Shown: positions 2,137 to 32,660 of the stretch, in pieces | How the letters are laid out: each line of letters begins with the position of its first letter | Position numbering within the stretch: the stretch's first letter is position 1 | NCBI GenBank assembly: GCA_964567285.1 | Contig: CAZMLO010000002.1 | Coordinates: 140,150 to 204,149, forward strand | DNA length: 64,000 nucleotides | Reading direction: 5' to 3' | From: an uncultured Gammaproteobacteria bacterium | GTDB lineage: Bacteria; Pseudomonadota; Gammaproteobacteria; JAIEPX01 | The notes under the pieces: generated by a model | The model's database searches: none | What the model saw: the letters and a program-made list of their open reading frames with translations, nothing else | Told to the model about the DNA's origin: nothing | Program-made: the position numbers and the translations under genes

Positions 2137-2427
2137 ATGAAAGACAGTAATGACGAAGGTGGTTGGTGGCGGTTTTTAGCGCTGTGTCTAGAAACTCGAA
2201 CTACTGGTCGGCTGGATAGTTTTTTTGATCTTTTTCTCACGCCCGAGGAAAAAAAGGATCTAACGAATCGATATCTGATTGTACAAGAGTTACTCAAAGG
2301 TGAGCTAACTCAACGAGAGATTGCCTCTGAACTGCAGGTGAGTATTGCCAATATCACGCGCGGATCAAATGGCATTAAGCGGATTGGCGATGATTTGAGA
2401 AATTTTTTAATTAAACGATTAAAATAG
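2137..2427 (+). CDS. trpR: Trp operon repressor TrpR
   Basis: WWRFLALCL...LFLTPEEKKDLTNRYLIVQELLKGELTQREIASELQVSIANITRGSNGIKR aligns along its length with E. coli TrpR (…[49 protein letters not shown]). It is 96 aa. A/T-rich SD precedes the start. Confidence 0.85.
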   Translation: MKDSNDEGGWWRFLALCLETRTTGRLDSFFDLFLTPEEKKDLTNRYLIVQELLKGELTQREIASELQVSIANITRGSNGIKRIGDDLRNFLIKRLK

Positions 2428-2436
2428 TCTCTCACT

Positions 2437-2464
2437 CAAATCGCCAAACCATAATGGCGATTTG
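2437..2464 (+). promoter_or_regulatory. stem-loop (9-bp stem CAAATCGCC/GGCGATTTG, 10-nt loop) between the trpR stop and the trpE RBS
   Basis: Perfect inverted repeat read in the 47-nt trpR-trpE spacer. It ends 1 nt before AGGAG (2465-2469) and 10 nt before the trpE ATG. There is no U-tract after it and no leader peptide ORF. Confidence 0.4.
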
Positions 2465-2474
2465 AGGAGATGAG

Positions 2475-3944
2475 ATGTTTGAATATCTAAATTTTGAACG
2501 CTTTGTTGAACTCGCAGAGAACAACAAACGCATTGTAGTTTATCAAGAAATTGCAGGAGATCGACTAACACCGATCAGTGCTTATTCAGCACTTGCAGAA
2601 CTCTTCACTGATCTAACTCTGCTAGAATCCAATCCTAGAGAACTTCATTTAGGGCGCCATTCATATTTGTGTTTTAATCAGAGCGCCTTAATTAAAGCCT
2701 TTGGCAGAAATATTAGCACTCGCATAGATGATAAAGAAGACTCTTTTATCGGAGATCCTTTTGAAACTCTCAGAGAGTATAAAAACCGTTTCACTGCCAA
2801 AATAGACCATCCACTCTCAGGCTATGCAGGTGGCATGGTTGGTTTTATCAGTTACGATGCAATTCGCCTCATCGAAGAAATTCCGGACCGTCATTATCAG
2901 AAGGATGATATTCCCGATCTATACTTTCGATGTTATGACTACAACATTAGTTTTGATCATCAAACTCAGAAGGTGGTTGTTTCTGTAGTTGCAAATATTC
3001 AAAAGGATGTTGAAGGTGTCTATCAAGATGCTATGAACAAAATACAATTTCTGATCCAGCTGATCAGAAATCATCATGAGCCCTCTAAAGATAATAATCC
3101 TCATCAATCAAACGTTATCACTAAAAATCTTGATGATCAGCGCTTCAAAGAGATGGTTCAAACTGCAAAAGAACATATTATTGCCGGTGATGCATTTCAA
3201 ATCGTTCTCTCAAGAGAATTTAGTGTTAAAACAGAGGCTAAACCTTTTGATATTTACCGATCATTACGCTTCAGTAGCCCTGCTCCATACATGTTTTGTC
3301 TACAATTCGATCATTACTCCATCGCGGGCGCCTCACCGGAGAAATTAGTTTCTGTTCAAAATAGACTTGTTGAAGCACGACCTCTTGCCGGTACTCGACC
3401 CAGAAGTAAATCGATTAGCGATGAAACAATGGCAGCAGACTTGCTGGCGGATGAAAAAGAAATCGCTGAGCATAAAATGTTAGTGGATCTCACACGCAAT
3501 GATATTGGCGCAATAGCGATTCCTGGGAGCGTTAATGTGGTTAAATTATTGGCGGTTGAAAACTTTTCTTCTGTGATGCATTTATCATCCACTGTTCAGG
3601 GAATATTACGCGATGGCTTTGATGCTATCGATGCTCTAAAAGCTACTTTTCCTGCCGGAACACTGAGTGGCGCTCCCAAAATTCGAGCTATGGAAATTAT
3701 TGATGATTTAGAAAGCACACGCCGAGGATTTTATGGTGGAGCTGTTTGTGCTTTTGATAGTTTGGGTAACTTAGAAAGCTGTATTGGTATTCGCACAGCG
3801 GTGATTAAAAATTCAACTGCAGTGGTTCGTGCCGGTGCTGGGATAGTGTTTGACTCAGATCCTCAAAAAGAAGCGGATGAAACCTTTCATAAAGCACGGT
3901 CGATTCTACAAGGTGTTCTGATGACAGAGGAGTTATACTCATGA
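2475..3944 (+). CDS. trpE: anthranilate synthase component I
   Basis: 489 aa. Contains LSREF...PYMF, GASPE, LAGTRPRS and GAVCAFDSLGNLESCIGIRT, the chorismate-binding enzyme signature. A GAGGAG RBS precedes it. Its stop overlaps the trpG start (ATGA). Confidence 0.95.
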   Translation: MFEYLNFERFVELAENNKRIVVYQEIAGDRLTPISAYSALAELFTDLTLLESNPRELHLGRHSYLCFNQSALIKAFGRNISTRIDDKEDSFIGDPFETLREYKNRFTAKIDHPLSGYAGGMVGFISYDAIRLIEEIPDRHYQKDDIPDLYFRCYDYNISFDHQTQKVVVSVVANIQKDVEGVYQDAMNKIQFLIQLIRNHHEPSKDNNPHQSNVITKNLDDQRFKEMVQTAKEHIIAGDAFQIVLSREFSVKTEAKPFDIYRSLRFSSPAPYMFCLQFDHYSIAGASPEKLVSVQNRLVEARPLAGTRPRSKSISDETMAADLLADEKEIAEHKMLVDLTRNDIGAIAIPGSVNVVKLLAVENFSSVMHLSSTVQGILRDGFDAIDALKATFPAGTLSGAPKIRAMEIIDDLESTRRGFYGGAVCAFDSLGNLESCIGIRTAVIKNSTAVVRAGAGIVFDSDPQKEADETFHKARSILQGVLMTEELYS

Positions 3945-4528
3945 TTTTAATCATCGATAACTATGATAGCTTTACCTACAATTTGTATCAATACATCGCA
4001 CCGTTGTGTGATTCAGTGTATGTAGTGCGCAATGATAAAATTAGCATTACCGAAATTGAAGAATATCAACCAAAAGGTATTATTATATCACCAGGTCCTG
4101 GCAGACCTGAAAATGCAGGTATCTGCTTAGAATTAATTCGACATTTTTCAGATAGTATTCCTATTTTGGGAGTCTGCCTCGGGCATCAGGCAATCGCTGT
4201 GGCCTTTGGTGGAGAGGTAGTCGGTGCCAACGACATTGTTCATGGCAAAAATTCACTCACGTATCACAATGGATCAGCATTATATCAGGGTCTGCCACTT
4301 CCTTTCTCAGCGGGGCGGTATCATTCATTGCTAGTCGACAAGAATAGTTTACCGACTAGTCTAAAAATTGATGCTGAAAACAGTGAGGGCCTGATCATGG
4401 GAATAAGCCATCATACTAACCCGACATTCGGTGTGCAATTTCATCCTGAATCCATTCTAACAGCAGAGGGTATTAGCTTACTCAAAAACTTCCTAACGCT
4501 TTGCAATAAAGAGGAGGCCCTATGTTAA
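3941..4528 (+). CDS. trpG: anthranilate synthase component II (class I glutamine amidotransferase)
   Basis: MILIIDNYDSFTYNLYQY...PILGVCLGHQAIA...HPES is a GATase1 triad motif set. It is 195 aa. Confidence 0.9.
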   Translation: MILIIDNYDSFTYNLYQYIAPLCDSVYVVRNDKISITEIEEYQPKGIIISPGPGRPENAGICLELIRHFSDSIPILGVCLGHQAIAVAFGGEVVGANDIVHGKNSLTYHNGSALYQGLPLPFSAGRYHSLLVDKNSLPTSLKIDAENSEGLIMGISHHTNPTFGVQFHPESILTAEGISLLKNFLTLCNKEEALC

Positions 4529-6252
4529 AAGAAATCATTCAAAAATTAACCCTACAAAATAATCTCAGTATTGAGGAAATGAAATTAGCTATGTATGAAA
4601 TTCTGAGTACCGATAACGAGGCACAAATTGCCGCTTTTTTGAGTCTATTAAGAGCAAAAGGAGAAACGGTTGAGGAAATAGTAGGCCTGGTCGCCATACT
4701 GCGTGATCAGATGATTCAGGTTCAGCCTCGATCTCAAGTATTAGATATAGTGGGAACAGGGGGTGATGGCTTTAACACGATCAATATCTCAACTGCATCG
4801 GCGCTATTAGCAGCCTGCTGTGGCGTACGGGTGGTTAAACATGGCAATCGAAGTGTCTCATCACTCTGTGGTTCTGCCGATGTACTTGAAGCACTAGGAA
4901 TTAATATTCATCTCAGTGCTGAGGAGGTCGCTGATAATGTCGAAAACCACAATTTCGGATTTTGTTATGCCCCTAATTTTCATCCGGCTCTTTCCAAAGT
5001 AAAAGCAATACGTCATAAATTAGGTATCACTTCATCGTTTAATTTGATTGCACCGATGCTGAATCCAGCTAATGCTGAATTTCTGATGATTGGGGTTGCC
5101 GACAAAAAAGCAATGAACATTATTGCTGACAGTCTGCTCCACGTTAAACCAAAACGCGCTATTATCTTCCACTGCCAAGGACTTGATGAACTTTGTGGTG
5201 TAGGCCCTATTGATATTATTGAACTTAATCATTCGGTCAAATCATCTTATCAACTTGACCCTATAGACTATAATATTGCTCGATGTACTATAGATGAACT
5301 ACGAGGTGAATCAGCTAAGGAAAATGCCCATCAGATAATGGAAGTTTTTAATGGAGTACCCAATGCCATAGCAGATTCTCTTATTTTAAATGCAGGATTT
5401 GCATGTTATCTTTACGGAATCACTGAATCTCTTGAAAAGGGTATACAACTAGCCAGACAAAAACTCTCCGATGGTTCCGCAGCTCAACTTGTTCTGACAC
5501 TAAAAAACCAAAATAAATTAGAAAAAATACTGTCTAATAAAGCTAAAGAGGTCGATGAGCTGAACAACCGACAAAAGAAAAGTCTTAAGAGGGCCCTCAG
5601 TTCTCCTGGATTATCCATTGTTAGTGAGATAAAGCGAAAATCGCCCTCCAATGGCATACTGAACAATGTAGTTGATCCAACCCTTTTAGTGGAATACTAC
5701 CTTGAAGGGGGTTCAGCCTCAATTTCCGTACTCACCGATACTAAATTTTTTTCTGGATCACTCGTAGATCTTAAAATCATTTCAGATAAACTCAAAGATA
5801 GTCCCACACCGATACTCAGAAAAGATTTTATTATAGAAAAATCGCAGATAGATGAATCCGCCCACTTTGGTGCCGATGCTGTATTATTAATCGTCACAGT
5901 TCTTAAGGAAAGAACAAAAGAATTTTTGGATTATACCGAGTTAAAAGGTCTAGAAGCCTTAGTTGAAGTACACACTCTCGTTGAACTAAAAATTGCGATT
6001 GATGCTGGAGCAAAAATCATAGCCATCAATAATCGAAATTTGAAAACATTTGAAGTTGACATCAATATCTCTCTTGATCTTATAAAACACATCCCATCAG
6101 ATATTATCAAAGTATCAGCATCTGGGATACGCACACCCGATCATTTCAAGACGATGAATGATGCTGGTTTTGATGCTGTATTAGTGGGTGAAGCACTGAT
6201 GAGCTCTGATGATCCCGTTCTCATGATAAAACAATTGCGAGGAGACTTATGA
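4522..6252 (+). CDS. trpDC: bifunctional anthranilate phosphoribosyltransferase / indole-3-glycerol-phosphate synthase (TrpD-TrpC fusion)
   Basis: The N-terminal ~330 aa has GTGGDGFNTINISTASALLAACCGVRVVKHGNRSVSS (TrpD). A K/N/E-rich linker of about 35 aa follows. The C-terminal ~240 aa has IVSEIKRKSPSNGIL...LRKDFII...NNRNL...SGI (TrpC). A GAGGAGG RBS lies at 4511-4517. Confidence 0.9.
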   Translation: MLKEIIQKLTLQNNLSIEEMKLAMYEILSTDNEAQIAAFLSLLRAKGETVEEIVGLVAILRDQMIQVQPRSQVLDIVGTGGDGFNTINISTASALLAACCGVRVVKHGNRSVSSLCGSADVLEALGINIHLSAEEVADNVENHNFGFCYAPNFHPALSKVKAIRHKLGITSSFNLIAPMLNPANAEFLMIGVADKKAMNIIADSLLHVKPKRAIIFHCQGLDELCGVGPIDIIELNHSVKSSYQLDPIDYNIARCTIDELRGESAKENAHQIMEVFNGVPNAIADSLILNAGFACYLYGITESLEKGIQLARQKLSDGSAAQLVLTLKNQNKLEKILSNKAKEVDELNNRQKKSLKRALSSPGLSIVSEIKRKSPSNGILNNVVDPTLLVEYYLEGGSASISVLTDTKFFSGSLVDLKIISDKLKDSPTPILRKDFIIEKSQIDESAHFGADAVLLIVTVLKERTKEFLDYTELKGLEALVEVHTLVELKIAIDAGAKIIAINNRNLKTFEVDINISLDLIKHIPSDIIKVSASGIRTPDHFKTMNDAGFDAVLVGEALMSSDDPVLMIKQLRGDL

Positions 6253-8021
6253 ATACTCAAGTAAAAATATGCGGGATTACTGACCCTAAAATCGCTAAGA
6301 CAATAGCAATGAAAGGTGTCAACTATATTGGTATTATTTTTCATGAGGAGTCTAAACGAAAAGTAGATATCGCTTTGGGCAAAGCCATTGCTGATTCTGC
6401 TAAAGGCGGTGGCGCTATACCAGTTGCAGTCTTTGGTGAACATTCAGGCATCATGATGCAGGAAATTTGTAATGCTACTGGAATTTCAGTGGTACAATTA
6501 CATGGAAAGCTCTCACAGGCTGAGCATCACACTCTAACGAAAGATATTCAGAAAATATTTGTCTTCAAAGTCGATCAGAAAGGTAATATCAACGATAATA
6601 TCGACGAACGTATCCAGATGATGGATCCAGAACAAGATTCCGTACTCTTTGATAATCTTGAAAAAAATTCTATACCTATTCTTCTTACACCTAAAATCAT
6701 TCGCATCGCTAGAAAATATAAAACTTTTATCGCGGGTGGTATCAATAAAAGCAATATAAGAAGTCTTATCGATCAATGTCAGCCCTATGCCATAGACCTC
6801 TGCTCAGGCGTTGAAAATTCACGGGGTGAAAAGAAATTGGAGATGATAAACGAGATTCTTAACGAAACCGCACGTTATGGTCGCTATGGCGGGAGATATA
6901 TGCCAGAATCATTGATGGCACCTCTGACGCAACTCGCCTCTGAATTTCATCACATCAAAAATGATCCGCAATTTCAAAATGAATTCAACTCACTGTTAAA
7001 AGAGTATGGGGGAAGACCGACCCCATTAACAGAAGTTAAACGTTTCCAACTATTTGCAAAGGGTCCAAGAATTTTTTTAAAAAGAGAAGATTTGTTACAC
7101 ACCGGAGCTCATAAAATCAATAATGCCCTTGGCCAATGTCTGCTCGCAAAAAAAATGGGCAAAGTCCGTGTTATCGCAGAAACGGGCGCCGGCCAACATG
7201 GCGTTGCTACTGCGACTGCTTGTGCCCGCCTTGGACTCGAGTGTATCGTCTATATGGGTGCCATCGATCTGATTCGACAAGCGCCTAATGTCGATAAAAT
7301 GCGCTTATTAGGTGCGAACGTAATTGCTGTTGAAGATGGCTCTAAAACATTGAAAGAGGGCGTGAATGCAGCACTTCGAGACTATGCCAGCAGTTTTCAA
7401 AATACCCATTATTGCTTAGGTTCAGCCCTAGGCCCTCATCCCTATCCTGAAATGGTTGCTTATTTTCAATCTGTGATTGGTCAAGAAACACAGGAGCAAT
7501 GCCACACCATTTTTGGAAAATCTCCAGATCTGATCATCGCTTGCATAGGTGGTGGATCCAATGCTATTGGTATTTTCTCGGCCTTTCTTAAGCAAGATGT
7601 TCAACTGGTTGGCGTTGAAGCAGGTGGAACAGGATTACAACATGCTGCTCGATTTCAAGGAGGAAGTCCTGGCATTTTACATGGCTGCATGAGCTATCTT
7701 CTGCAAGATGAAAACGGGCAAGTTCAGAATACTCATTCTATTTCTGCCGGTCTTGATTATCCAATGATAGGACCTCAACATGCTCATCTTTATGAAACAA
7801 AGCGCGTTAAATACAATTTATGCACAGATGATGAAGCACTCCATGCTTTTAAAATATTAAGCCAAACAGAAGGAATTATTCCTGCTTTGGAATCCGCTCA
7901 TGCACTGGCCTATTATTTAAGAGAAGCTCCGAAAATGCACCCTGATAGCATCGTTATCGTTAATTTATCCGGCCGAGGTGACAAAGACATCACACAATTA
8001 GCTAGAAGGGAATTACTATGA
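6249..8021 (+). CDS. trpFB: bifunctional phosphoribosylanthranilate isomerase / tryptophan synthase beta chain (TrpF-TrpB fusion)
   Basis: The N-terminus MNTQVKICGITDPKIAKTIAMKGVNYIGIIF is PRAI. From about residue 210, RYGRYGGRYMPESLM...HTGAHKINNALGQCLLAKKMGKVRVIAETGAGQHGVATA...GGGSNAIG is the TrpB PLP enzyme. An ATGA overlap is present at both ends. Confidence 0.9.
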   Translation: MNTQVKICGITDPKIAKTIAMKGVNYIGIIFHEESKRKVDIALGKAIADSAKGGGAIPVAVFGEHSGIMMQEICNATGISVVQLHGKLSQAEHHTLTKDIQKIFVFKVDQKGNINDNIDERIQMMDPEQDSVLFDNLEKNSIPILLTPKIIRIARKYKTFIAGGINKSNIRSLIDQCQPYAIDLCSGVENSRGEKKLEMINEILNETARYGRYGGRYMPESLMAPLTQLASEFHHIKNDPQFQNEFNSLLKEYGGRPTPLTEVKRFQLFAKGPRIFLKREDLLHTGAHKINNALGQCLLAKKMGKVRVIAETGAGQHGVATATACARLGLECIVYMGAIDLIRQAPNVDKMRLLGANVIAVEDGSKTLKEGVNAALRDYASSFQNTHYCLGSALGPHPYPEMVAYFQSVIGQETQEQCHTIFGKSPDLIIACIGGGSNAIGIFSAFLKQDVQLVGVEAGGTGLQHAARFQGGSPGILHGCMSYLLQDENGQVQNTHSISAGLDYPMIGPQHAHLYETKRVKYNLCTDDEALHAFKILSQTEGIIPALESAHALAYYLREAPKMHPDSIVIVNLSGRGDKDITQLARRELL

Positions 8022-8785
8022 AACATTTATTTAATAAACGCCCCGCATTTGTTGCATACCTTACAGCAGGACAGAAAAGTTTAAATTTTACCAAAGAAGC
8101 AGCCATTGCGTTGGCCGATGGAGGTGTTGACTTGCTAGAAATTGGTGTGCCTTTTTCTGACCCTATTGCCGATGGCCCCGTTATCGCACAGGCGATGAAT
8201 GAGGCACTGTCTCACTCTGTTAGACTCCACTCTGTTCTAGATATCATTCATGAAATTAAACAAGTTAGAAATATTCCTATTGTACTCTTCACCTACTTCA
8301 ACCCACTCTTTAAAACAGGAATTGATAACCTAATGAATGAGGCGAAGCAAGCAGGGATCGATGCTATTTTAACTGTCGATTTACCATTGGAAGAATCATC
8401 AGACTATTTCTCGTCTGCTAAGAATGCTGCCATCGATATTATTAGTCTTATCTCACCCTCAACAGAACCTGAGCGCATTCTAAAAATCTGTGAAAATCAC
8501 CCTGCTATTCTTTATTATGTTTGTCGTAATGGCATAACCGGACTTAAAGATAATCTTCCTTCAGATTATGTTGACAAACTTTCACAAATAAAATCTATTA
8601 CGAAAATACCGATCATCTCAGGCTTTGGTATTTCAACGAAAAAAATGGCCTCATCTGTACTAAGATGTGCCGATGGTTTTGTGGTGGGCTCTCTGTTTGT
8701 CAAAGCAATATCAGAGGGAGCATCACCTTTAGCACTTCAACAATTAGCTATCAACTTAGATCCAAGAGAGGGGGTAATATCATGA
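8018..8785 (+). CDS. trpA: tryptophan synthase alpha chain
   Basis: 255 aa with AYLTAG...[18 protein letters not shown]...GFGIS motifs. Its stop overlaps the start of the DAHP synthase gene (ATGA). Confidence 0.9.
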
Positions 8786-9627
8786 TTTTAGTCGGCAGAG
8801 ATATGAAGAAATCTAATACAGTAATCCGTATTAAAGATAAAGAAATTGGTGGTGGTGCGTTTACCATCATGGCAGGACCTTGCACTATTGAATCGAGGGA
8901 TCAGATGTTCTCTATTGCGAAAGCGGTTAGTGAATGCGGTGCCACAATTCTGCGAGGTGGTGCATTTAAACCCAGAACTTCACCTTATGACTTCCAAGGA
9001 CTAGGTGAAGAAGGCCTGCAATATATGCGTGAAGCAGCAGACAAATATCAGATGCTTTGTATTTCGGAAGTGATGAGCCCAGAAGAAGTCCCACTGGTGG
9101 AGCAATACGTCGATATTTTGCAAATTGGTGCGCGTAATATGCAAAACTTTAGTTTGTTAAAATCGGTAGGAAAATCAAAAATTCCGGTATTACTAAAAAG
9201 GGGACTCTGTGCCACCTATAAAGAATTTTTATTAGCCGCTGAATATATTATGAGCTGTGGTAATCTCAATGTTATTCTCTGTGAACGCGGAATTCGTACC
9301 TTTGAAACGCTGAGCCGAAATACACTGGATATCGCCGCCGTGCCAATTCTGAAGGAACTCACTCACCTACCCATTATTGTAGACCCAAGCCATGGTACTG
9401 GATTAAGATCTATTGTGGGGCCCATGGCCCTCGCGGCTATGGCAGTAAAGGCGGACGGGCTTATTGTGGAGGTCCACACCGACCCCGATCAATCGATTTG
9501 CGATGCCCAACAAACCATTAGCCCAAAGATGCTATCTGAGATAGTGGGAGGTTTGCAGAAAATCGGCAATGCTGTGAATATGACTGTAGCGGGAAAGACC
9601 ACCCAACAGGAGAGACTCGTCGCATGA
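8782..9627 (+). CDS. 3-deoxy-D-arabino-heptulosonate-7-phosphate synthase, short class I-beta (KDO8PS-like) type without regulatory extension
   Basis: [21 protein letters not shown]...[27 protein letters not shown]...[11 protein letters not shown]...KRG...IVDPSHGTG matches DAHPS I-beta. The start is taken at ATG 8782 (ATGA coupling to trpA, RBS AGAGGGGG at 8766) rather than the longer ORF, which would overlap trpA. Confidence 0.85.
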
Positions 9628-10904
9628 AAAGTTACAAAATTAGGCCTTCAAAGCTCAGGGGAAGTATCAGTGCATCCCCCTCAAAATCGCAGAGTATGAG
9701 GGCCATTTTATTCGCGACCATGGCTAGCGGCAAAAGTATTATCAAAAACTGCTTAAATTCTCCTGATATTGATGCAATGATTAAGGCCTGCAGAAAATTA
9801 GGCGCTGAAATTAGTTGCAGGCAAAATACCCTTGAAATTATTGGTGTTGCCGGCAAACCCTCTATACCTGATGATGTGATTGATGCGGGTAATTCAGGAC
9901 AAGTATTACGTTTTGTCGCCGCTATTGCTTCCTTAACGAAAGGCACAACCGTGCTTACAGGTGATCATTCTGTGCGTTACAATCGCCCTGTCCGACCTTT
10001 AATGGATGGCCTCTCTCAATTAGGTGTTGAATGCTACAGCACGAAAGATGATGATCACGCTCCTCTGGTTGTGCGGGGACCTCTTCAACCTGGTATCACT
10101 TTTCTCGATGGAGCCGATTCTCAACCCGTGTCTGGCCTTTTGATTGCTGCGGCTTTTCTAAACGGCATTACACAAATTCATGTCAAAAACCCCGGCGAAA
10201 AGCCCTGGGTGAATTTAACACTGAGCTGGTTAGACCGCTTCGGCATTCAATACACCAATGAAAATTTTGAAAAAATCACTGTGGCAGGCAATCCTATTAT
10301 ACAAGGTTTTGAATACACAGTATCCGGTGATTTTAGCTCAATCGCTTATCCCATTGTGGCTGCACTACTGACACAATCGGAAATTACCGTGAATAATATT
10401 GACATGAATGATGCCCAAGGCGATAAAAAAATTATTGCTGTACTAAAAAAAATGGGCGCCATTATCGAAGTGAATGAAAATAAATTATTAGTTAAATCCA
10501 GCGGCACCCTAAAGGGATGTGAAATTGATGTTAACGATTTTATTGATGCTATCACTATTCTAGCAGTTGTAGGTTGTTACGCTTCAGGCACAACCACATT
10601 GACCAACGCGGCTATTGCCCGAAAAAAAGAGAGTGATCGATTGTCGTCTATTAGCGCAGAGTTAAAAAAAATGGGTGCTGATATTAGTGAAACTCATGAT
10701 AGCCTTATCATTCAAGGTAAACCCCTGAGCGGTTCCACATGCCTATCCTATCACGACCACCGTATCGCCATGTCTTGTACTATTGCAGCACTCGGCGCTG
10801 ATAAGGAAACAATTATACAAGATACTGCCTGCGTCACCAAAAGTTACCCCGATTTTGTTGCGGACATGCAGCGACTGGGATGTGAGATGGAGGTGATTGA
10901 ATGA
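9624..10904 (+). CDS. aroA: 3-phosphoshikimate 1-carboxyvinyltransferase (EPSP synthase)
   Basis: 426 aa with an EPSPS fold: [37 protein letters not shown]. Confidence 0.9.
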
Positions 10905-11419
10905 ACTTGATCTTATGCGGCTATCATTGTTCTGGAAAAACAACTATCGCCAAAGCCTTTTCAATAAAATACGATTACCATTATATTGATACTGACGATC
11001 TTGTTGCTCGAGCAAAAGGCCTAAAAGATTCTCGTGCCGTTCATACACTATTAGGTGAAGAGGACTATCGTTCTTTTGAAAAAAGCATTGTGCATTCCCT
11101 AAAAGATATCAATAATACCATAATAGCCACTGGAGGGGGTGTTTTATTAAATAGTGAAAACACGCACCATCTCAAGACATTGGGTAAAATAATTTATTTA
11201 TACGTTGAAACAGAGACACTACGGCAAAGAATCTTAGAAAAAAAATCACTCCCTAACTTTATCCGTGAATCCTCCTTCGATGAAGATTTCAAACGCTACA
11301 TCGATAGCCGCAAAACACTCTATGATTCTGAAGCAGACATTAAACTCAATGTAACAGAAAAATCTGTCGAAGAAATCTTATCCTTAATTAACCAGTACAG
11401 GTCTGATCATGGCATCTAA
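10901..11419 (+). CDS. aroK: shikimate kinase
   Basis: 172 aa. It has the Walker A motif GYHCSGKTT, a DTD motif and GGG...L, typical shikimate kinase architecture. It sits within the aro block. Confidence 0.8.
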   Translation: MNLILCGYHCSGKTTIAKAFSIKYDYHYIDTDDLVARAKGLKDSRAVHTLLGEEDYRSFEKSIVHSLKDINNTIIATGGGVLLNSENTHHLKTLGKIIYLYVETETLRQRILEKKSLPNFIRESSFDEDFKRYIDSRKTLYDSEADIKLNVTEKSVEEILSLINQYRSDHGI

Positions 11420-12491
11420 TTCTTTCGGTAATATTTTTAGAATCACGACATGGGGCGAATCCCATGGAAAAGGAATCGGCGTCGTTATCGATGGCTGCCC
11501 TGCAGGTATCGAGATATCGGATACTGATATAAATACTGCTTTAGCCTTACGCGCACCTGGCACTAATCCTTTTACCTCACCTCGTAAAGAACCCGACATT
11601 GCGGAAATATATTCTGGTATTTTCGAGGGAAAAACCACGGGTACCCCACTCTCGATCGTTATCATGAATAAAGATTCTGATTCAAGCAAATATGAGCCCA
11701 TTAAGAATTTGCTACGGCCTGGCCACGCTAACTTTACTTATCTCGAAAAATACGGCTGCTTCGATTATCGCGGTGGCGGCAGAGCTTCTGCTAGAGAAAC
11801 TGCTTGCCGAGTAGCCGCAAGTGCGGTTGCTAATAAAATATTAGCGCACGAAAAAATCGAAGTGATTGCTTATATAAAAAGTATTGGCAACATCGATATG
11901 TCACTCGAGCATCTTGATCTTAGTATGATCAAAACTCAAACTCAGAGTAGCTCCATATTTTGCCCTGATACAGTTTCCGCAGAAAAAATGATGGCAGCTA
12001 TAACAGCCGCCAAAGAAGAAGGTGATTCGCTTGGTGGCATTGTGGAATTTTTAGTGCTCAATATGCCTGTAGGTTTGGGTGATCCCATTTATGAAAAATT
12101 AGAAGCCAATTTAGCCAAAGCGATGATGTCGCTTCCTGCAACCAAGGGTTTTGAAATTGGCGAAGGTTTTGCAGCTACGCGCATGAAAGGTTCAACACAT
12201 AACGATGAATTCAGCACTAAAAGAATAACTAGCACTAATCACGCCGGTGGAACTTTAGCCGGGATTTCAACAGGGATGCCCTTAATGGGCAGAGTGGCTT
12301 TTAAACCCACTTCGAGTATCAACAAAGTACAGAATACTGTTGATGATCAGGGCCAACAACAAAAATTTAAATTACCAGAAGGCTCTCGACATGATCCCTG
12401 CGTCGCTATCCGAGCAGTACCCGTCGTCAGTGCCATGTGCAGTTTGGTAATTGCGGATGCCTTACTCATGAACCGATCGTGCAAATTGTGA
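11409..12491 (+). CDS. aroC: chorismate synthase
   Basis: FRITTWGESHGKGIGVVIDGCPAG...RPGHANFTY..KYG..DYRGGGRASARET is canonical. Confidence 0.9.
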   Translation: MASNSFGNIFRITTWGESHGKGIGVVIDGCPAGIEISDTDINTALALRAPGTNPFTSPRKEPDIAEIYSGIFEGKTTGTPLSIVIMNKDSDSSKYEPIKNLLRPGHANFTYLEKYGCFDYRGGGRASARETACRVAASAVANKILAHEKIEVIAYIKSIGNIDMSLEHLDLSMIKTQTQSSSIFCPDTVSAEKMMAAITAAKEEGDSLGGIVEFLVLNMPVGLGDPIYEKLEANLAKAMMSLPATKGFEIGEGFAATRMKGSTHNDEFSTKRITSTNHAGGTLAGISTGMPLMGRVAFKPTSSINKVQNTVDDQGQQQKFKLPEGSRHDPCVAIRAVPVVSAMCSLVIADALLMNRSCKL

Positions 12492-12561
12492 GAATGAATA
12501 TGACTGCCAACTACTTGCCCCTAAATGAAAGGTCCCTATTTCACCTAAAAGAGGAGAAATA

Positions 12562-13650
12562 ATGACACATCCTTTCGTAATTGGTGAAAATCTGCTGTTG
12601 AGTCAACACATCATTGAGCTTTGCCCAAGAGCCTGTTCGCAATTCGTGATTATCACGGATGATAATGTTCAGCCTCTTTACGCTGCCAAATTAAAAGAAC
12701 ACCTCAGACTCAATGATTTAAACTCACACATCATCACTATTCCAAATGGTGAGGCATCAAAATCAAGAGAAATGGTTGCGAAAATTCAAGATCAACTCTT
12801 AGATTTAGGTTATGGACGCGATACTTGCATTCTGGCTTTAGGCGGTGGAGTTATCACCGATTTAGCCGGGTATGTTGCCGCAACTTATTGTCGTGGCATT
12901 CCCGTGATTTACTTGCCCACCACTTTATTAGCCATGGTGGATGCAGCCCTGGGTGGAAAAACAGGTGTTAATACACCACACGGTAAAAATCTTATTGGCG
13001 TTTTTGCTCAACCTAGAGCTATTTTATCAGATATCAGCACTTTAAAAACTTTAGCTGAAGCTGAATTTCGCTTCGCCTTTGCTGAAATTATAAAACATGC
13101 CATAATATTTGATCATGAATATTTCGATACCCTATTGAAGCATGCTGATGCTCTCAAAAACCGTGACTTAAATCTTCTCAAAACAATTATTCAACGCAGT
13201 TGCGAAATAAAATCGAAAATAGTCTTAGAAGATGAAAAAGATCAGGGCATCCGCACAATCTGTAATTTTGGCCATACTATCGGGCACGCACTGGAATTTG
13301 TTTCAGATTATACCCTCAATCATGGACAAGCCGTCGCGATCGGGATGATGATAGAGTCATTTATCGCCACACAGATGGGCATATTATGCAACGCTGATTT
13401 TGATAAAATAAAAGAGATTCTGTCTCTTTTCGATCTCACCGCATCCCTACCCTGCACTACCACACCAGAGAAGATCAAAAACGCTTTGATCTTAGATAAA
13501 AAATCTCGGGAAAAAAGCCCAAGATTCATTTTAATTCAAAGCATAGGCAAGGTATATAAAGAACAATCCAATTACTCTCACCCCGTGGATCAGATTATTT
13601 TAGACAAAGCACTGGATTATTTAACCACCGAATTCATGGAGCGATCATGA
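12562..13650 (+). CDS. aroB: 3-dehydroquinate synthase
   Basis: 362 aa with LGGGVITDLAGYVAATYCRGIP, GGKTGVN and NFGHTIGHALE metal site motifs. A 70-nt gap precedes it, and GAGGAG lies at the RBS. Confidence 0.9.
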   Translation: MTHPFVIGENLLLSQHIIELCPRACSQFVIITDDNVQPLYAAKLKEHLRLNDLNSHIITIPNGEASKSREMVAKIQDQLLDLGYGRDTCILALGGGVITDLAGYVAATYCRGIPVIYLPTTLLAMVDAALGGKTGVNTPHGKNLIGVFAQPRAILSDISTLKTLAEAEFRFAFAEIIKHAIIFDHEYFDTLLKHADALKNRDLNLLKTIIQRSCEIKSKIVLEDEKDQGIRTICNFGHTIGHALEFVSDYTLNHGQAVAIGMMIESFIATQMGILCNADFDKIKEILSLFDLTASLPCTTTPEKIKNALILDKKSREKSPRFILIQSIGKVYKEQSNYSHPVDQIILDKALDYLTTEFMERS

Positions 13651-15011
13651 TTGTAACGATAATTCAACAAAAAAATACTGCTGATTTATACGGTCAGTAT
13701 CTACGCTGCAGCGATTTATCTGAAGCTTTCGAATTTCGTCTGGACTACTTAGATATTATAGATATTGAAGCTCTCTGTGAATTGAGATCTAAAATTCATA
13801 AGCCGATTATTTTGACCTTAAGACCCGACCCAAATTCTCAGAATGAAGAAAAAAGACTCGCAACACTGATGGAATTAGGCAGAGCAAACCCCGATTATGT
13901 GGATATAGAACACAGTGTTAGCCCTAGATTTATCGAAGAATTCCATCATAAATACTCTGAAATCAAGATCATACGATCCTACCACAATTTTGACGAAACA
14001 CCACAAGACCTAAAATCTATCCTGATTCAATTAGAACATCCATTCTGTGACATTTATAAAATAGTCACTACAGCAACTTCTAGTCTCGACAATTTAACGG
14101 TACTCCACTTTCTAAAAGATCACTCTAAATCTTATAACATAGCAGCACACTGCATGGGTGAATTAGGAACTCCTTCTCGGGTTTTATCCCCCATTCTGGG
14201 CAGTCAATTACAATATGTAGCCGCAGATGAAACACAAATACCAGCACCTGGCTGCTTTTCACTCAATACTTTATTACAAAATTACCAGGGAAAAAACATT
14301 GATCATCTCACTAAGATTTATGCTTTGCTGGGAAACCCGGTAGAACAAAGCCCGGGCCACATTTTTCACAACAACATTTTTCAAAAATCCGCGGCAAAAT
14401 CCGTGTACGTCAAATTCAAGCTCACAAACGAAGAGCTTCCTCTATTTTTAAAACAAATAACAGGTTTGCCCTTTCATGGATTTAGCGTCACGATTCCCTT
14501 AAAAAGAGATATAATCCAATTCATCGATCTTTTTGAGAACGATTCTGACCAAATCGGAGCTATCAACACAATTCGTGTCGAGAATAATCAATTATTAGGA
14601 CTCAATACCGATGGCGCAGGAGCACTGAATGCTCTTGAAAGAATTCAGCGGGTAAAATCGAAAAATGTTTTAATTATAGGTGCCGGCGGCTCAGCTAAAG
14701 CGATTGCTTATGAAGCCCAAAAAAGAGGGGCAGCCTCCATTGTGATTATCGATCGAACTCTAAAAGGTCCGGATGATTTATCAAATCCAGACTCTTTCGA
14801 TTTTGTTATCAACGCCCTACCCCCTGCAATCGATTACCCCATCACACCTCAATTTAGCACAACCGCCGTTTTCATGGATATCAATTACCACCAACCCGAG
14901 AGCCGATTAAAATCCCTTGCCCTTGCCGCTGGGTGTACACTCGTGGATGGCTATGAAATGTTCGTTGAACAGGCATTGCTACAACAGGACTATTGGATTT
15001 CATCTCAATAA
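13647..15011 (+). CDS. aroDE: bifunctional type I 3-dehydroquinate dehydratase / shikimate dehydrogenase (AroD-AroE fusion)
   Basis: The N-terminal half has the type I DHQase signature CMGELGTPSRVLSPILGS. The C-terminal half is shikimate DH (YALLGNPVEQSPGHIFHN, NTDGAGALNAL, a Rossmann GAGGSAKA). It has an ATGA overlap with aroB. Confidence 0.85.
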   Translation: MIVTIIQQKNTADLYGQYLRCSDLSEAFEFRLDYLDIIDIEALCELRSKIHKPIILTLRPDPNSQNEEKRLATLMELGRANPDYVDIEHSVSPRFIEEFHHKYSEIKIIRSYHNFDETPQDLKSILIQLEHPFCDIYKIVTTATSSLDNLTVLHFLKDHSKSYNIAAHCMGELGTPSRVLSPILGSQLQYVAADETQIPAPGCFSLNTLLQNYQGKNIDHLTKIYALLGNPVEQSPGHIFHNNIFQKSAAKSVYVKFKLTNEELPLFLKQITGLPFHGFSVTIPLKRDIIQFIDLFENDSDQIGAINTIRVENNQLLGLNTDGAGALNALERIQRVKSKNVLIIGAGGSAKAIAYEAQKRGAASIVIIDRTLKGPDDLSNPDSFDFVINALPPAIDYPITPQFSTTAVFMDINYHQPESRLKSLALAAGCTLVDGYEMFVEQALLQQDYWISSQ

Positions 15012-15014
15012 CTT

Positions 15015-16178
15015 TCAAGTACTCCAATTCTTCGAGAGGATATCTAAATACTCGCCTTCTTTTTCGTCTTTAGGCATATTGTGTTTTCCCTCATGAATAT
15101 ATTTTGCTATTTTTCTTGCATCGTTGGAGTTAAAAAATGACTGAGATAAATGTTGCTTTACTTTTGGGTCTGGCTCTTGCGAATCAAACCAGTTTTCCCG
15201 AAATAGATAATCAGCCAAATGGACGAAGTATTCCATTTGTTGTTTTGTCATAGGAGGATAATCTTCATCAAGATTTCCATCGTAGGGAATCATACTAACT
15301 TCACAGCCAGAGTTTAGAGCAAACTGTAGAATTCCCAGCAAATGACCTACACCAACAGCCGATAGATTATCACCCACCACGAGAAATTCTTTCAGCTTCT
15401 CACAAAATATCCGATCTCGTTTAGTAACGTTTTCATCGTAAATTTTTTGAGCCAGAACAGGAAGTCTTTCACGGAATTTTTTAGTTATAATATTATGTTT
15501 TAAACAAGCGGATATTAACGATAAATTTCCGCTTTTATATGCTTTTAGCAACTGCCCGAGTATTTTATCAAGGCAAACACTGTCTGTATTTAATAGATCA
15601 GGTAATGATAATTTAAAAACCTGAAGTTGCTCATCGAATGTTAAATATAGCCCTTGAAGTAGGGAGTTAACATCAGTTGCTGATTCTAGCCCTGTTATTT
15701 TCTTTGAATTTTCTCTAGCATACTCTGCTAATAATACATCAGTGCCTTTCTTAACATCATCAACCATTTTTTTAGACATACTCAGCATTTGTAACAAATG
15801 CAGCGGTGTCATCATGTTCATCATTTCTTCTAATTCTCTAACTTCTAATTTTTCATTGCCTGTATATGACATCAATTTTACACATATTGCTGCAATTTGC
15901 TCATTGGATAAATTCGCATTTTTAAAAAAATCATAACACCCAGGGTTATCATATCGCCACAAAAGACAAGCCATATCATCTACAATCGTGTCATCAGGTG
16001 ATTTTTCTAAAATTAATGTAGATACTTTGCCACACACCTTTTTCACGATATTTGGCAGCTCCGAAGAACTGTGGAAAGTTCCATATAGATAGGTTACAGC
16101 TCCCTCGGGTGTTTTCACTTTATACAGATTCGATAACGATATTCTGTTTGTATCTTTTTTTTCTTGCTTGTGATCCAT
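15015..16178 (-). CDS. TraB/GumN family protein (possible secreted/effector-like protein)
   Basis: 387 aa with YLYGTFHSSSE near the N-terminus and AVGVGHLLG near the C-terminus, the two conserved blocks of the TraB/PrgY/GumN family. The acidic C-terminus is KDEKEGEYLDILSKNWST. It converges on aroDE with a 3-nt gap. Confidence 0.55.
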   Translation of the reverse strand: MDHKQEKKDTNRISLSNLYKVKTPEGAVTYLYGTFHSSSELPNIVKKVCGKVSTLILEKSPDDTIVDDMACLLWRYDNPGCYDFFKNANLSNEQIAAICVKLMSYTGNEKLEVRELEEMMNMMTPLHLLQMLSMSKKMVDDVKKGTDVLLAEYARENSKKITGLESATDVNSLLQGLYLTFDEQLQVFKLSLPDLLNTDSVCLDKILGQLLKAYKSGNLSLISACLKHNIITKKFRERLPVLAQKIYDENVTKRDRIFCEKLKEFLVVGDNLSAVGVGHLLGILQFALNSGCEVSMIPYDGNLDEDYPPMTKQQMEYFVHLADYLFRENWFDSQEPDPKVKQHLSQSFFNSNDARKIAKYIHEGKHNMPKDEKEGEYLDILSKNWST

Positions 16179-20938: not shown

Positions 20939-22129
20939 ATGACCTTGAGGCTGATTCAAAGTTTTTTCTTAATCGTCGGCACATCGATTGGTGCAGGCAT
21001 TTTAGCCCTGCCGATTTCTACTGCATCCTGTGGATTTTGGGGCTCTGTTCTTGCGCTCGTTATCACTTGGGTCTTCATGACCTTCTCAGCCAATAACATG
21101 ATCAAAGCAAGACTCTGCTTTAAAGAAGAAGTCGATCTAGCAACGATGACCACCGAACTGCTCGGAAAAGTCCCTAATATTTTCACAGAATTTTGTTACT
21201 TCGCTCTATTAATGGCCTTAGTTTCTTTATATATCACTGTGGGCTCTGCATGGGTTACAGAATTAGTAGGACACTACTTAGGTTTGAAATTATCGTCACC
21301 TGTTTCTCAAATCGGTTTTACTTTTGTTATCGCCGGAATTATTTACAGCGGCTTGGGCAATCTTGCCAACATTAATCAATTTATTACACTCGCAAAACTT
21401 TTCTGCTTTGTCATGATAATTAGCTTGAGCTTGCCTCTAGTACAAGAAGCAAAACTAGCAGAATATTCTTTAAAAGCAATTCCAACCACTTTTAGTCTAC
21501 TGATTACAACTTTTGGATTTTCAATTATTCTTCCATCACTCGTTGGATATCTCAACAATGATCGAAAAAAAATGACAGCCGCTTTAATTGTGGGAAGCAT
21601 TGTTATATTACTTATTTATTTAGCCTGGGAACTCATCTCATTCGGTGTAATCGGCGCTGATGGTGATGGTCTGATCAAAATTTCACTGAGCAAAGATAAA
21701 GGCACTGAAGTAATTAACACACTCGCCACCACGGTGAATAATCCTGCATTTCATAAATACGGATTCGGCATAATGTTAACGGCAGTCTTAACGTCATTTT
21801 TAGGTGTGGGCCAATGTTTGTTCCACTACCTCAAAGACACTTTGCCCATCAAAAATCATCATCGAAAATCTTTGACCGCCATCGTTGTAGGCTTCGTGAC
21901 TCCGCTGATCATCATCAACGTTTACCCTTCCGGCATCTCCTCGATCCTAAGCTTCGCTGGTATTTTCGTAGCTGCCATCTTAGGCATTCTACCCAACGCA
22001 ATGATGCTCTCAAAAACCTACAACACTCGCATGCCCCCGAACTCTTTCACTCAAAAAACACTCTCCATTTTGAGCCTGATTTTCTTCGGGATGATCATTG
22101 CTATAGAAATTTGGCAATTGATTGGCTGA
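20939..22129 (+). CDS. aromatic amino acid permease, HAAAP family (Mtr/TnaB/TyrP-like)
   Basis: 396 aa, about 11 TM. The N-terminus LIVGTSIGAGILALPISTASCGFWGSVLALVITW resembles TyrP/Mtr (…AGTTIGAGMLAMP…). Confidence 0.75.
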   Translation: MTLRLIQSFFLIVGTSIGAGILALPISTASCGFWGSVLALVITWVFMTFSANNMIKARLCFKEEVDLATMTTELLGKVPNIFTEFCYFALLMALVSLYITVGSAWVTELVGHYLGLKLSSPVSQIGFTFVIAGIIYSGLGNLANINQFITLAKLFCFVMIISLSLPLVQEAKLAEYSLKAIPTTFSLLITTFGFSIILPSLVGYLNNDRKKMTAALIVGSIVILLIYLAWELISFGVIGADGDGLIKISLSKDKGTEVINTLATTVNNPAFHKYGFGIMLTAVLTSFLGVGQCLFHYLKDTLPIKNHHRKSLTAIVVGFVTPLIIINVYPSGISSILSFAGIFVAAILGILPNAMMLSKTYNTRMPPNSFTQKTLSILSLIFFGMIIAIEIWQLIG

Positions 22130-29807: not shown

Positions 29808-29816
29808 TTTGTTCTT

Positions 29817-30131
29817 TTAGCGCTTATCGCTAGACTTCTGTGTTGGTTCCATAGAGGTGAAATCTTTTAATCCGTTCATGTAGCGTGAGATAATATCTCC
29901 AGATTTTTGCATATAGCTCATTAGCTCTATGCCACTACTGGCAGTAACTTTCAATTGTAACGCCACAAGATCTTCAGGTTTTTTTACATTTTTAATCTCT
30001 GAAAGATAATCTCTCTGAACGATATTATTGATATTACTCAACACCTTGGTGTTTAGCTCTGTCAGTTCTGTAGTACTATCAATGATGTGTTTATTGAATT
30101 TCTTGACTTTATCATCTAATTTCTCGGCCAT
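29817..30131 (-). CDS. phaP: phasin family protein (PHA granule-associated)
   Basis: About 104 aa, amphipathic helical (MAEKLDDKVKKFNKHIIDSTTELTELNTKVLSNINNIVQ...). A GGAAGGGGA RBS is present. It lies between phaC and phaB. The start is taken at the internal Met. Confidence 0.65.
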   Translation of the reverse strand: MAEKLDDKVKKFNKHIIDSTTELTELNTKVLSNINNIVQRDYLSEIKNVKKPEDLVALQLKVTASSGIELMSYMQKSGDIISRYMNGLKDFTSMEPTQKSSDKR

Positions 30132-30214
30132 AACACTCCCCTTCCAGCGTAAATGGTTAATTAATCTCCCATGCAGTAAATGTAGCACAGTTTTGGTATT
30201 AAGCAATTTAATGC

Positions 30215-30961
30215 TTAAATCATATACTGGCCGCCATTAATGGTTAGATTCGAGCCTGTGATGAATCCACTGTTCTCAGATGCCAGAAAACAAACTGCTC
30301 GTGCGATTTCTTCGGGTTTACCAAGTCGTCCAAGAGGAATTTGCGAGACAATTTTCTCAATGACCTCCTCTTTCATTTTCATGACCATAGTTGTAGCGAT
30401 ATAGCCAGGAGAAATGGTATTGACGGTAATTCCTTTATTGGCAACCTCAAGGGCTAAGGCTTTTGTAAATCCATGAATACCTGCTTTTGACGCAGAATAA
30501 TTTGTTTGCCCATATTGTCCCTTTTGACCGTTAATCGATGAGATATTAATAATACGGCCATAACGGCGATTTATCATATTATTAATCACTTGACGGGTAA
30601 TATTGAAAAGGCTATCTAAATTCGTGTGAAGAACAGATTCCCATTGCTTCTGATCCATTTTATAGAATGGCGTATCAGCGGTAATTCCTGCGTTATTAAC
30701 TAAGATATCTATTCTCTGGCCCTTTTCACCCATTGTCTGTATAAGCGCTTCACAGGATTCAAAATCGGTGACATTGACATAATAAATATCAAATTCATAG
30801 CCGTTTTTAAGCTGTTCTGCTTGCCATTGCTTTGCTGATTCATGATCACCCTGACGAAAATAGGTAGCGATAACCTCTGCCCCTTCGTCAAAAAGATGCT
30901 GACAAATTGAAGTGCCAATACCACCTAAACCACCAGTCACTAATGCTATTTTTCCCTTCAT
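30215..30961 (-). CDS. phaB: acetoacetyl-CoA reductase (SDR)
   Basis: MKGKIALVTGGLGGIGTSIC, NAG, and YSASKAG catalytic Tyr/Lys are present. An AGGAG RBS precedes it. Confidence 0.85.
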   Translation of the reverse strand: MKGKIALVTGGLGGIGTSICQHLFDEGAEVIATYFRQGDHESAKQWQAEQLKNGYEFDIYYVNVTDFESCEALIQTMGEKGQRIDILVNNAGITADTPFYKMDQKQWESVLHTNLDSLFNITRQVINNMINRRYGRIINISSINGQKGQYGQTNYSASKAGIHGFTKALALEVANKGITVNTISPGYIATTMVMKMKEEVIEKIVSQIPLGRLGKPEEIARAVCFLASENSGFITGSNLTINGGQYMI

Positions 30962-30974
30962 AAAAACTCCTGCA

Positions 30975-32658: not shown

Positions 32659-32660
32659 CC

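Follow-up and report, generated by a model that had tools for sequence, protein, structure and literature searches.

Can an entire biosynthetic route, from erythrose 4-phosphate (E4P) and phosphoenolpyruvate (PEP) to tryptophan, be placed under the command of one tryptophan-responsive repressor? This question is raised by a locus on a 64-kb stretch of DNA (hereafter 'the window') from an uncultured gammaproteobacterium, in which the gene for the repressor TrpR is followed, on the same strand, by genes for tryptophan synthesis and then by genes for the shikimate pathway (positions 2137-15011, + strand). We consider it reasonably probable, on comparative evidence, that this block arose by the joining of two operons and is expressed as a single TrpR-controlled transcript, with repressor and enzyme synthesis coupled through an RNA hairpin and with an unregulated DAHP synthase (DAHPS) at the pathway entry.

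A contiguous trp-aro block and its promoter region

The block is an unbroken series of 12 same-strand open reading frames (ORFs) that encode TrpR, all seven tryptophan functions and all seven shikimate steps. Each function was assigned from Pfam matches far above the curated cut-offs. The trp half begins with trpR (2137-2427), whose 96-aa product matches PF01371 at 4.4e-24 (84.8 bits against a cut-off of 27). It is followed by trpE for anthranilate synthase component I (2475-3944; PF04715, Anth_synt_I_N, and PF00425, Chorismate_bind) and by trpG for the glutamine amidotransferase component II (3941-4528; PF00117, GATase, at 1e-56), which share an ATGA overlap. Two fusion genes come next, each a single ORF. 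One is trpD·trpC (4522-6252, 576 aa; PF02885, PF00591, Glycos_transf_3, and PF00218, IGPS), which combines anthranilate phosphoribosyltransferase with indole-3-glycerol-phosphate synthase, and the other is trpF·trpB (6249-8021, 590 aa; PF00697, PRAI, and PF00291, PALP), which combines phosphoribosylanthranilate isomerase with tryptophan synthase beta. This half is completed by trpA for tryptophan synthase alpha (8018-8785; PF00290, Trp_syntA, at 1e-69) and by a gene for a class I-beta DAHPS that consists of the catalytic core only (8782-9627, 281 aa; PF00793, DAHP_synth_1). The aro half comprises aroA for 5-enolpyruvylshikimate 3-phosphate synthase (9624-10904; PF00275 at 3e-107), aroK for shikimate kinase (10901-11419; PF01202, SKI, at 9e-28), aroC for chorismate synthase (11409-12491; PF01264 at 3e-132), aroB for 3-dehydroquinate synthase (12562-13650; PF01761 and PF24621) and an aroD·aroE fusion of type I dehydroquinase with shikimate dehydrogenase (13647-15011, 454 aa; PF01487 and PF08501, Shikimate_dh_N).

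The start of the DAHPS gene required correction. A mechanically called ORF (8665-9627, 320 aa) overlaps trpA by 121 nt and gave no match in an exact-protein look-up, its start being too early, and gene callers on identical contigs place the start at 8782, in an ATGA overlap with trpA. With this start, nine of the 11 junctions overlap, in seven cases by the four nucleotides ATGA and in the other two by 7 and 11 nt. The DAHPS/aroA junction, which joins the trp-DAHPS half to the aro half, is one of the ATGA overlaps. The only two gaps are 47 nt between trpR and trpE and a lineage-specific 70 nt between aroC and aroB (12492-12561), in which no signal was detected. The original prediction had counted 11 genes and ten junctions, eight of them overlapping, and so erred in the conservative direction; the gene content, single strand, tight coupling and completeness of both pathways that it described are borne out by the ORFs, Pfam matches and junction coordinates. 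The same is true of the absence of pheA and tyrA: a Pfam search of the block and the rest of the window found no domains of pheA, tyrA, ubiC or pabB.

Independent short-read assemblies from several runs (L001-L006, L087 and L088) give an identical block sequence, including the 70-nt gap and the short DAHPS gene, and because they reproduce it exactly, mis-assembly is excluded and the block is not an assembly artefact. Its genes are also under purifying selection. Comparisons with relatives yield dN/dS values of 0.05-0.20 for all 12 genes (0.09 for trpR against the relative L093, described below), similar to those of the adjacent glmM (0.05) and folP (0.12), all of these values being approximate because dS is close to saturation. 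Judging from these ratios, the block is being maintained, unlike the trp operon of Coxiella.

Transcription would start from a single promoter upstream of trpR. The candidate is a sigma-70 promoter (2074-2102, + strand) with a -35 element TTTACA (2074-2079), a 17-nt spacer and a -10 element TACCAT (2097-2102). Its consensus score of 9/12 is by itself at chance level, and its support comes from conservation: the aligned position in L093, which carries the same joined block, reads TTGACA-17-TATCAT, and TTGACA stands at an equal distance from the same palindrome in a Chlamydiia metagenome-assembled genome (MAG), HKST-UBA16 (locus L007), and in a further locus, L097. The palindrome in question is the 18-bp sequence GTAATGATGTACCATTAC (2088-2105), which contains the -10 element and has the core GTAATG-N6-CATTAC. 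It lies within a 20-nt candidate TrpR operator, TGTAATGATGTACCATTACG (2087-2106). The exact core occurs once in the window, and a search with the 20-nt version allowing up to three mismatches finds only this site, with 0.05 expected. The exact palindrome is present upstream of trpR in L093 and L007, 8-9 nt after TTGACA, and occurs twice in L097, and it is thus kept across TrpR proteins that are only 37-85% identical. One more exact copy lies inside the glmM coding sequence of another relative (L101, 10926-10943), probably by chance among the ~1.5 Mb of fetched loci.

The putative operator resembles that of Escherichia coli in its placement. At the E. coli trp promoter (genome record L114), an 18-bp palindrome begins ~10 nt after TTGACA and covers the -10 element, the same geometry as in the window; in both systems the operator overlaps the -10 and follows the -35 at a distance of ~8-10 nt. 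The operator sites show TGTA units at intervals of 8 bp, and L007 and L097 have additional copies upstream, a periodicity that parallels tandem TrpR binding in E. coli. The window TrpR aligns to E. coli TrpR structures at an E-value of 4e-14 and, in a pairwise alignment, keeps the four co-repressor residues (T44, R54, R84 and G85) as well as R69, which contacts DNA, with S88 replaced by Gly. Its recognition helix reads IANITRGSN against IATITRGSN in E. coli, and this T81N substitution fits a related but distinct operator (GTAATG-type rather than GTACTAG-type). The E. coli regulon (trpEDCBA, trpR, aroH, aroL and mtr) is autoregulated and extends to common-pathway genes, as would be the case here, but its targets are scattered, each with its own operator, and a leader-peptide attenuator of the E. 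coli kind is lacking in the window. The protein is therefore a credible tryptophan-binding repressor on the basis of its retained pocket residues, and the palindrome at 2088-2105 is predicted to be its operator, through which trpR, as the first cistron, would be autoregulated. The region 2040-2120, earlier proposed as a target for an electrophoretic mobility shift assay, thus contains a strong, conserved operator candidate.

A second region proposed for the same assay, 2430-2475, is not operator-like. It corresponds instead to a conserved RNA hairpin in the trpR-trpE gap (2427-2476, + strand) with a perfect 12-bp stem (2435-2446/2455-2466) and an outer stem that starts at the G of the trpR stop codon, in which UCUCUC pairs with the trpE Shine-Dalgarno sequence GAGGAG and the first bases of the AUG. 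The structure has a predicted free energy of -26.5 kcal/mol (z -7.8), a stability reached by none of 200 shuffled sequences. The hairpin is kept in L093 (z -6.3), where it has a bulge and a single exchange of A-T for G-C. No U-tract follows it and a terminator scan made no call there. A trpL-type attenuator is also not apparent, given that the 47-nt spacer has no conserved ORF and holds a single hairpin without a U-tract. An Rfam scan of the whole window brought only tRNA above threshold, with no leader or riboswitch. We propose that the hairpin occludes the trpE ribosome-binding site (RBS) and that ribosomes finishing translation at the trpR stop codon would unfold it, which would tie synthesis of the enzymes to that of the repressor. 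From trpE onward, ribosomes would pass from gene to gene through the nine overlapping stop/start junctions.

The coding sequence of trpR has a feature of its own. Its codons 10 and 11 (2164-2169) specify tandem Trp residues within G-W-W-R (residues 9-12), and these are the only Trp codons among the first ~2,480 codons of the operon. The E. coli TrpL leader peptide has these residues at identical positions. The tandem is also present in L093, and L007 has a single Trp; ribosome stalling during starvation could lower TrpR synthesis.

Relatives, precedents and the loss of a DAHPS domain

Where did such a block come from? The two halves have different relatives. In a scan of representative genomes, the window DAHPS finds its best match (59%) in a Chlamydiia MAG, and no gammaproteobacterium is among the top 80 matches. 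This Chlamydiia locus, L007, has trpR-trpE-G-D-C-F-B-A-DAHPS on one strand, with trpD and trpC left unfused. All seven Trp domains of the window are nearer to L007 than to E. coli, which serves here as a distant comparator (48% versus 37% for TrpE, 51% versus 36% for TrpC and 45% versus 31% for TrpA). For the aro half, a stand-alone aroA-aroK-aroC-aroB-aroD·E cluster exists in two gammaproteobacterial MAGs (L091 and L102) within a conserved hemN-hydrolase context, whose AroA is 71% and AroD·E ~50% identical to that of the window.

The joined block, in the same gene order, was found in at least two diverged relatives, answering an earlier suggestion that the locus be examined by comparative genomics. 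In L099 (GlmM 88% identical, block proteins 67-89%) it stands beside glmM as in the window. In L089 and L093 (TrpR 85%) unrelated genes lie on both sides, and the similarity of L093 to the window begins only at the promoter. The whole block is thus present in two different genomic contexts. The trpD·trpC fusion is shared by L093, and an aroD·E fusion occupies the equivalent position in L091, L102 and L099. In a metagenome scan with an AroA profile, 11 loci came up; the similarity did not exceed 55% in any of them, and no trp genes were attached. The best explanation for these distributions is that the block results from a head-to-tail joining of a Simkania-type trp-DAHPS operon and an aroA-K-C-B-DE operon at the DAHPS/aroA ATGA overlap. 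Two operon types, both known from Chlamydiae and separate in relatives, would thereby have become one supraoperon.

Some variation among the relatives should be recorded. In L089 (4235-7316) and L093 (15881-18962; contig_22159), trpA and the DAHPS gene are each broken up into more than one ORF, and aroA continues in frame from the C-terminal part of DAHPS. Indel errors of long reads or an early stage of decay in the junction genes could account for this; the stretch lies outside the short-read contigs at hand. A TrpR homology search, limited by its word index, returned 12 proteins. At locus L095 (10001-10763), two trpR paralogues lie in tandem. Their products share 56% and 42% identity with the window TrpR; no trp genes were found nearby, and an exact GTAATG-N6-CATTAC is missing upstream.

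Most of the design of the block has been described before, and the joined, complete unit is what differs. Chlamydia trpRBA had been cited as a precedent for a repressor gene in first position, but nearer ones exist for each half, namely the operon trpR/trpE/G/D/C/F/B/A/DAHPS of Simkania negevensis, in which trpR is first, a class I-beta DAHPS is last and all junctions but one overlap (Bonner, Byrne & Jensen 2014, PMC3937554), and the aroLCBDE operon of C. trachomatis (PMC8409740). Simkania and L007 share with the window the leading trpR, the single-strand order E-G-D-C-F-B-A, the class I-beta DAHPS directly after trpA and the mostly overlapping junctions, and L007 shares the upstream GTAATG-N6-CATTAC palindrome as well. 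They differ in that the trpD·C and trpF·B fusions and the truncated DAHPS belong to the window, and in that the window has a trpR-trpE spacer of 47 nt with a hairpin, against 18 nt for Simkania and a single nucleotide for L007. The Simkania-type operon also ends after DAHPS, whereas in the window five aro genes follow without a break in a gammaproteobacterial host, making the block an extended variant. Chlamydia aroLCBDE has the same aroK/L-aroC-aroB-aroD·E order and the same dehydroquinase·shikimate dehydrogenase fusion; unlike the block in the window, this operon and the clusters of L091 and L102 each possess a separate promoter region, and neither trp genes nor the TrpR palindrome are close by. 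We take aroA to lie immediately upstream of aroLCBDE in C. trachomatis.

The trp operon of Coxiella burnetii is also relevant because a Simkania-like donor has been proposed for it (PMC3937554; PMC4916741). Like the window, it combines a gammaproteobacterial host with chlamydia-like trp genes and a trpF·trpB (PRAI·TrpB) fusion (PMC3937554). Its trpR is unlinked, however, its DAHPS gene is absent and its genes are decaying, whereas the window retains trpR and DAHPS in an intact operon with the aro genes appended. The transfer proposal had a gap in that Coxiella lacks a linked trpR and DAHPS. The window locus keeps both of them together with the trpF·trpB fusion, and it therefore looks like an intact intermediate.

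More distant supraoperons share fewer features. The array trpB-trpA-DAHPS (I-beta) is widespread in Acidobacteriota, Firmicutes and Myxococcota (12 proteins mapped on fetched loci); a Thermincola locus (L068) and a Calditrichaceae locus (L076) were examined, both of the kind that contains tyrA, and in some loci of Firmicutes and Calditrichaceae the array runs on as DAHPS-tyrA-aroA(-aroE). This Firmicute type, the classical partial supraoperon, resembles the window in uniting trp and common-pathway aro genes in one same-strand array with a I-beta DAHPS after trpA, but it has tyrA, only part of the shikimate pathway and no trpR. The supraoperon of Bacillus subtilis is aroF-aroB-aroH-trpEDCFBA-hisC-tyrA-aroE and is controlled by TRAP instead of TrpR. 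With trpR present and with no hisC or tyrA/PDH domain found in the block, the window locus does not belong to the Firmicute class. Neither a limited search of the literature nor the fetched loci yielded another description of a TrpR-headed unit with both complete pathways.

The DAHPS of the window lacks the N-terminal ferredoxin-like (FXD) regulatory domain. Alignment with the homologues of L099 (363 aa, core 86% identical) and L007 (338 aa) reveals a clean loss of ~75 residues, and PF18152 (FXD) is found in the L099 and L089 homologues. The deletion is in-frame and retains the first two residues and the ATGA junction (MI|LVGRD...). The I-beta DAHPS of Thermotoga, which has the FXD, is inhibited by Phe and Tyr, and I-beta enzymes without a regulatory domain are generally not feedback inhibited (PMC6362186). 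We infer that the pathway entry in this lineage is no longer under allosteric control, which would put more weight on TrpR: entry would be set by transcription rather than by allostery. In the Thermincola locus (L068, 8691-10804), trpA is followed by two I-beta DAHPS genes in tandem, of which only the second encodes the FXD; a domain-less operonic DAHPS has therefore arisen elsewhere too.

One transcript or several

If the block is indeed one transcript, tryptophan-loaded TrpR at the palindrome would repress trpR, the seven tryptophan functions and, via read-through, the seven shikimate steps. Several observations are consistent with this arrangement. Exact and ≤3-mismatch scans of the window found no second operator before aroA, aroB, the nearby aromatic amino acid permease gene or trpS. 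The start of aroA overlaps the DAHPS stop codon, leaving no intergenic region upstream; the ancestral aroA upstream region is gone, and the aro half has no promoter region of its own such as the Chlamydia-type aro operon possesses as a stand-alone unit. The aroC-aroB gap, put forward earlier as the site of an internal promoter, contains no promoter-like match and no operator and has an unremarkable fold (z -0.46). Its 70 nt correspond to spacers of only 1-9 nt in L089, L091, L099 and L102. We therefore reject it as a regulatory element, as it is neither structured nor conserved and carries no promoter match or operator. Scans of the block in general were uninformative: promoter-like matches number 43 against 41.7 in shuffled sequence, plus-strand terminator-like matches are limited to two weak ones inside trpE and also occur at the chance rate, and no weight should be given to these counts for or against internal signals.

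The argument that weighs most comes from L097, whose TrpR is 57% identical to that of the window. There, a trpR-trpE-trpG-trpD operon, in which trpR and trpE overlap by 26 nt and no hairpin is present, diverges from an aro operon that is not homologous to the one in the window (aroA, aroK, type II aroQ, a separate aroE, an I-alpha-like DAHPS with 21% identity to that of the window, and aroB). The 220-bp divergent intergenic region (5292-5510) contains two copies of the palindrome, each with a direct TGTAATG repeat 8 bp upstream, and in the aro direction the promoter reads TTGACA-N8-GTAATGCTATACCATTAC with a TACCAT -10 element, the same design as in the window. The stand-alone aro clusters of L091 and L102 are without the GTAATG-N6-CATTAC palindrome. 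Because the aro operon of L097 is non-homologous and yet has its own palindrome promoter, these sequences indicate that TrpR control of the whole aro pathway was assembled at least twice, in different ways.

Placing the common pathway under tryptophan repression had been called physiologically odd. This now appears too strong, as TrpR of E. coli represses aroH and aroL and the operator of L097 precedes an aro operon; repressors are also leaky. The part of the objection that stands is the need for chorismate in making quinones and folate. Taken together, single-transcript, tryptophan-repressed expression is, in our judgement, the best-supported reading.

A number of points weigh against this reading or limit it. 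Chorismate is presumably still required for quinones and folate, given that nuoA and folP are in the window, and full repression of the cell's only aro genes would be harmful; a second aro set, or pheA and tyrA, may lie outside the 64 kb. Internal promoters may exist within the block, where consensus matches are as frequent as expected by chance. Given an operator unlike that of enteric bacteria and the T81N change in the recognition helix, TrpR binding at 2087-2106 is best described as plausible. The hairpin could be a processing site, a stabiliser or a protein-binding site, and ribosome stalling at W10 and W11 during starvation would oppose strict trpR-trpE coupling. Transfer between Chlamydiae and gammaproteobacteria may have run either way. 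Finally, the enzymes of the block are poor in Trp (0.14% versus 0.88%, P ~2e-10), but we discarded this as specific evidence, as Trp contents are similarly low in stand-alone aro clusters and in the trp enzymes of E. coli.

Among the alternatives, the one that most directly challenges a single transcript regards the block as a gene cluster in which TrpR governs trpR to trpA, and perhaps DAHPS, and the aro genes are expressed from internal, tryptophan-insensitive promoters within the DAHPS or aroA coding sequences or in the aroC-aroB gap. It would secure the constant chorismate supply that quinone and folate synthesis call for, it accords with the independence of the aro operon in relatives, and the E. 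coli trp operon sets an example with its internal promoter (PMC11878033). It can also point to the 70 nt ahead of aroB and to promoter-like hexamer pairs on the + strand within coding sequence (for instance 10368-10397, at 10/12). Such pairs are no more frequent than in shuffled sequence, however, and the gap is featureless and absent in all relatives; an ATGA overlap now stands where aroA formerly had its upstream region, and L097 recruited a TrpR operator to an aro operon independently. We judge this alternative rather unlikely. A different proposal concerns the hairpin, which might act on transcription as a partial terminator or attenuator, or as the DNA site of a second regulator, such that trpR is often transcribed alone and the enzymes obey a second signal. 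In its favour, the stem is conserved, rich in G+C and of high stability, the corresponding DNA forms a perfect inverted repeat of 12 bp, and transcripts from the C. trachomatis trpR promoter end in the trpR-trpB intergenic region under YtgR (PMC6504234). This idea also seems unlikely to us, since the hairpin has no U-tract, terminator call, leader peptide or Rfam element, and since its 3' arm holds the trpE Shine-Dalgarno sequence within a spacer of only 47 nt, as occlusion of the RBS predicts. Neither L007 nor L097, in which trpR directly adjoins or overlaps trpE, has this element.

That the block might be non-functional, either a mis-assembled MAG segment or a recently acquired relic in decay like the eroding trp operon of C. 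burnetii, is highly improbable. The pseudogenes of that related operon (PMC3937554), the split ORFs of L089 and L093 and the domain lost from the window DAHPS could be cited in its favour. Against these, all 12 ORFs are intact with dN/dS values comparable to those of glmM and folP, several independent short-read assemblies agree, the FXD was lost cleanly and in frame with the ATGA junction kept, and the frameshifts of L089 are on a contig named in long-read style and may be errors.

Genomic surroundings and significance

The block is flanked on one side by nuoA, a tRNA-Leu gene, secG and tpiA and on the other by a TraB/GumN gene, glmM, folP and ftsH, all on the - strand. The nearest named relatives of GlmM are gammaproteobacterial MAGs (83%) and a 'Coxiellaceae bacterium' (69% identity), and the source is probably an uncultured gammaproteobacterium related to Legionellales or Coxiellales. 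The window also encodes polyhydroxybutyrate (PHB) genes, a patatin-like protein, a weakly SidE-phosphodiesterase-like protein and several large orphan proteins, and the contigs of relatives are rich in Ank, Fic, patatin and Ras-like proteins. An intracellular bacterium had been assumed at the outset, and a host-associated setting is plausible on the strength of the GlmM relationship and these genes.

A broader interpretation can be offered, and we do so only tentatively. The block may be a portable cassette for tryptophan autonomy, comprising promoter, operator, repressor and 14 enzymatic functions from E4P and PEP to tryptophan, that has been exchanged between Chlamydiae and Legionellales/Coxiellales-like bacteria sharing amoebal or other eukaryotic hosts. 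Its aromatic pathway would then be dedicated to tryptophan and controlled by transcription only, with a single TrpR input and the DAHPS feedback domain discarded, Phe and Tyr being scavenged, and GTAATG-N6-CATTAC would represent a non-enteric class of TrpR operator found in two phyla. A repressor and 14 enzymatic functions behind one operator, with the allosteric domain of the first enzyme removed, would amount to a natural experiment in which feedback inhibition is replaced by transcriptional control. From the operator motif follows a concrete prediction that can be tested on the TrpR regulons of Chlamydiae and Legionellales-like bacteria, for which tryptophan supply is at the heart of the conflict between host and pathogen. 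The advance is nonetheless an incremental one in comparative genomics, and no new mechanism is claimed.

The immediate boundaries of the block are also informative. No integrase, insertion sequence element or flanking repeat was seen at the block. Two relatives (L100 and L101; GlmM 83-85%) have neither the block nor tpiA beside glmM, and local synteny is too fluid for a comparison with an 'empty site' between tpiA and glmM. The stop codons of aroD·E and of the convergent TraB/PrgY/GumN gene are 3 nt apart (15011-15017), and the sole terminator-like hairpins for the two transcripts lie inside the coding sequence of the opposite gene (15216-15239 on the + strand and 14738-14724 on the - strand), which implies convergent overlapping transcription. 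In L099, a TauE gene occupies the slot held by TraB/PrgY/GumN in the window.

Two other genes of the window relate to tryptophan or tyrosine. A Trp/Tyr permease family transporter (20939-22129, + strand; PF03222 at 5.5e-66) is encoded 6 kb from the block, just past ftsH, with no GTAATG-N6-CATTAC upstream, and it bears on the question of aromatic amino acid scavenging. A 333-aa class I W/Y aminoacyl-tRNA synthetase, probably the tryptophanyl enzyme (44355-45356, + strand), adjoins a SUF/IscR cluster and likewise has no TrpR-type palindrome upstream. Elsewhere, a 783-aa protein with a sub-threshold match to the SidE phosphodiesterase domain (25448-27799, - strand) and three Pfam-less proteins of 1386, 421 and 1006 aa (46947-51107, 55698-56963 and 57142-60162, all + strand) are candidate secreted effectors. 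The PHB-related cluster (27996-33692) includes phaC, a phasin-like gene, an acetoacetyl-CoA-reductase-like SDR, acetoacetate decarboxylase, a second SDR and a patatin-like lipase. A 600-aa protein (51931-53733, - strand) combines PUA_2, ATP-sulfurylase and APS-kinase domains in the manner of a PAPS-synthase-like fusion.

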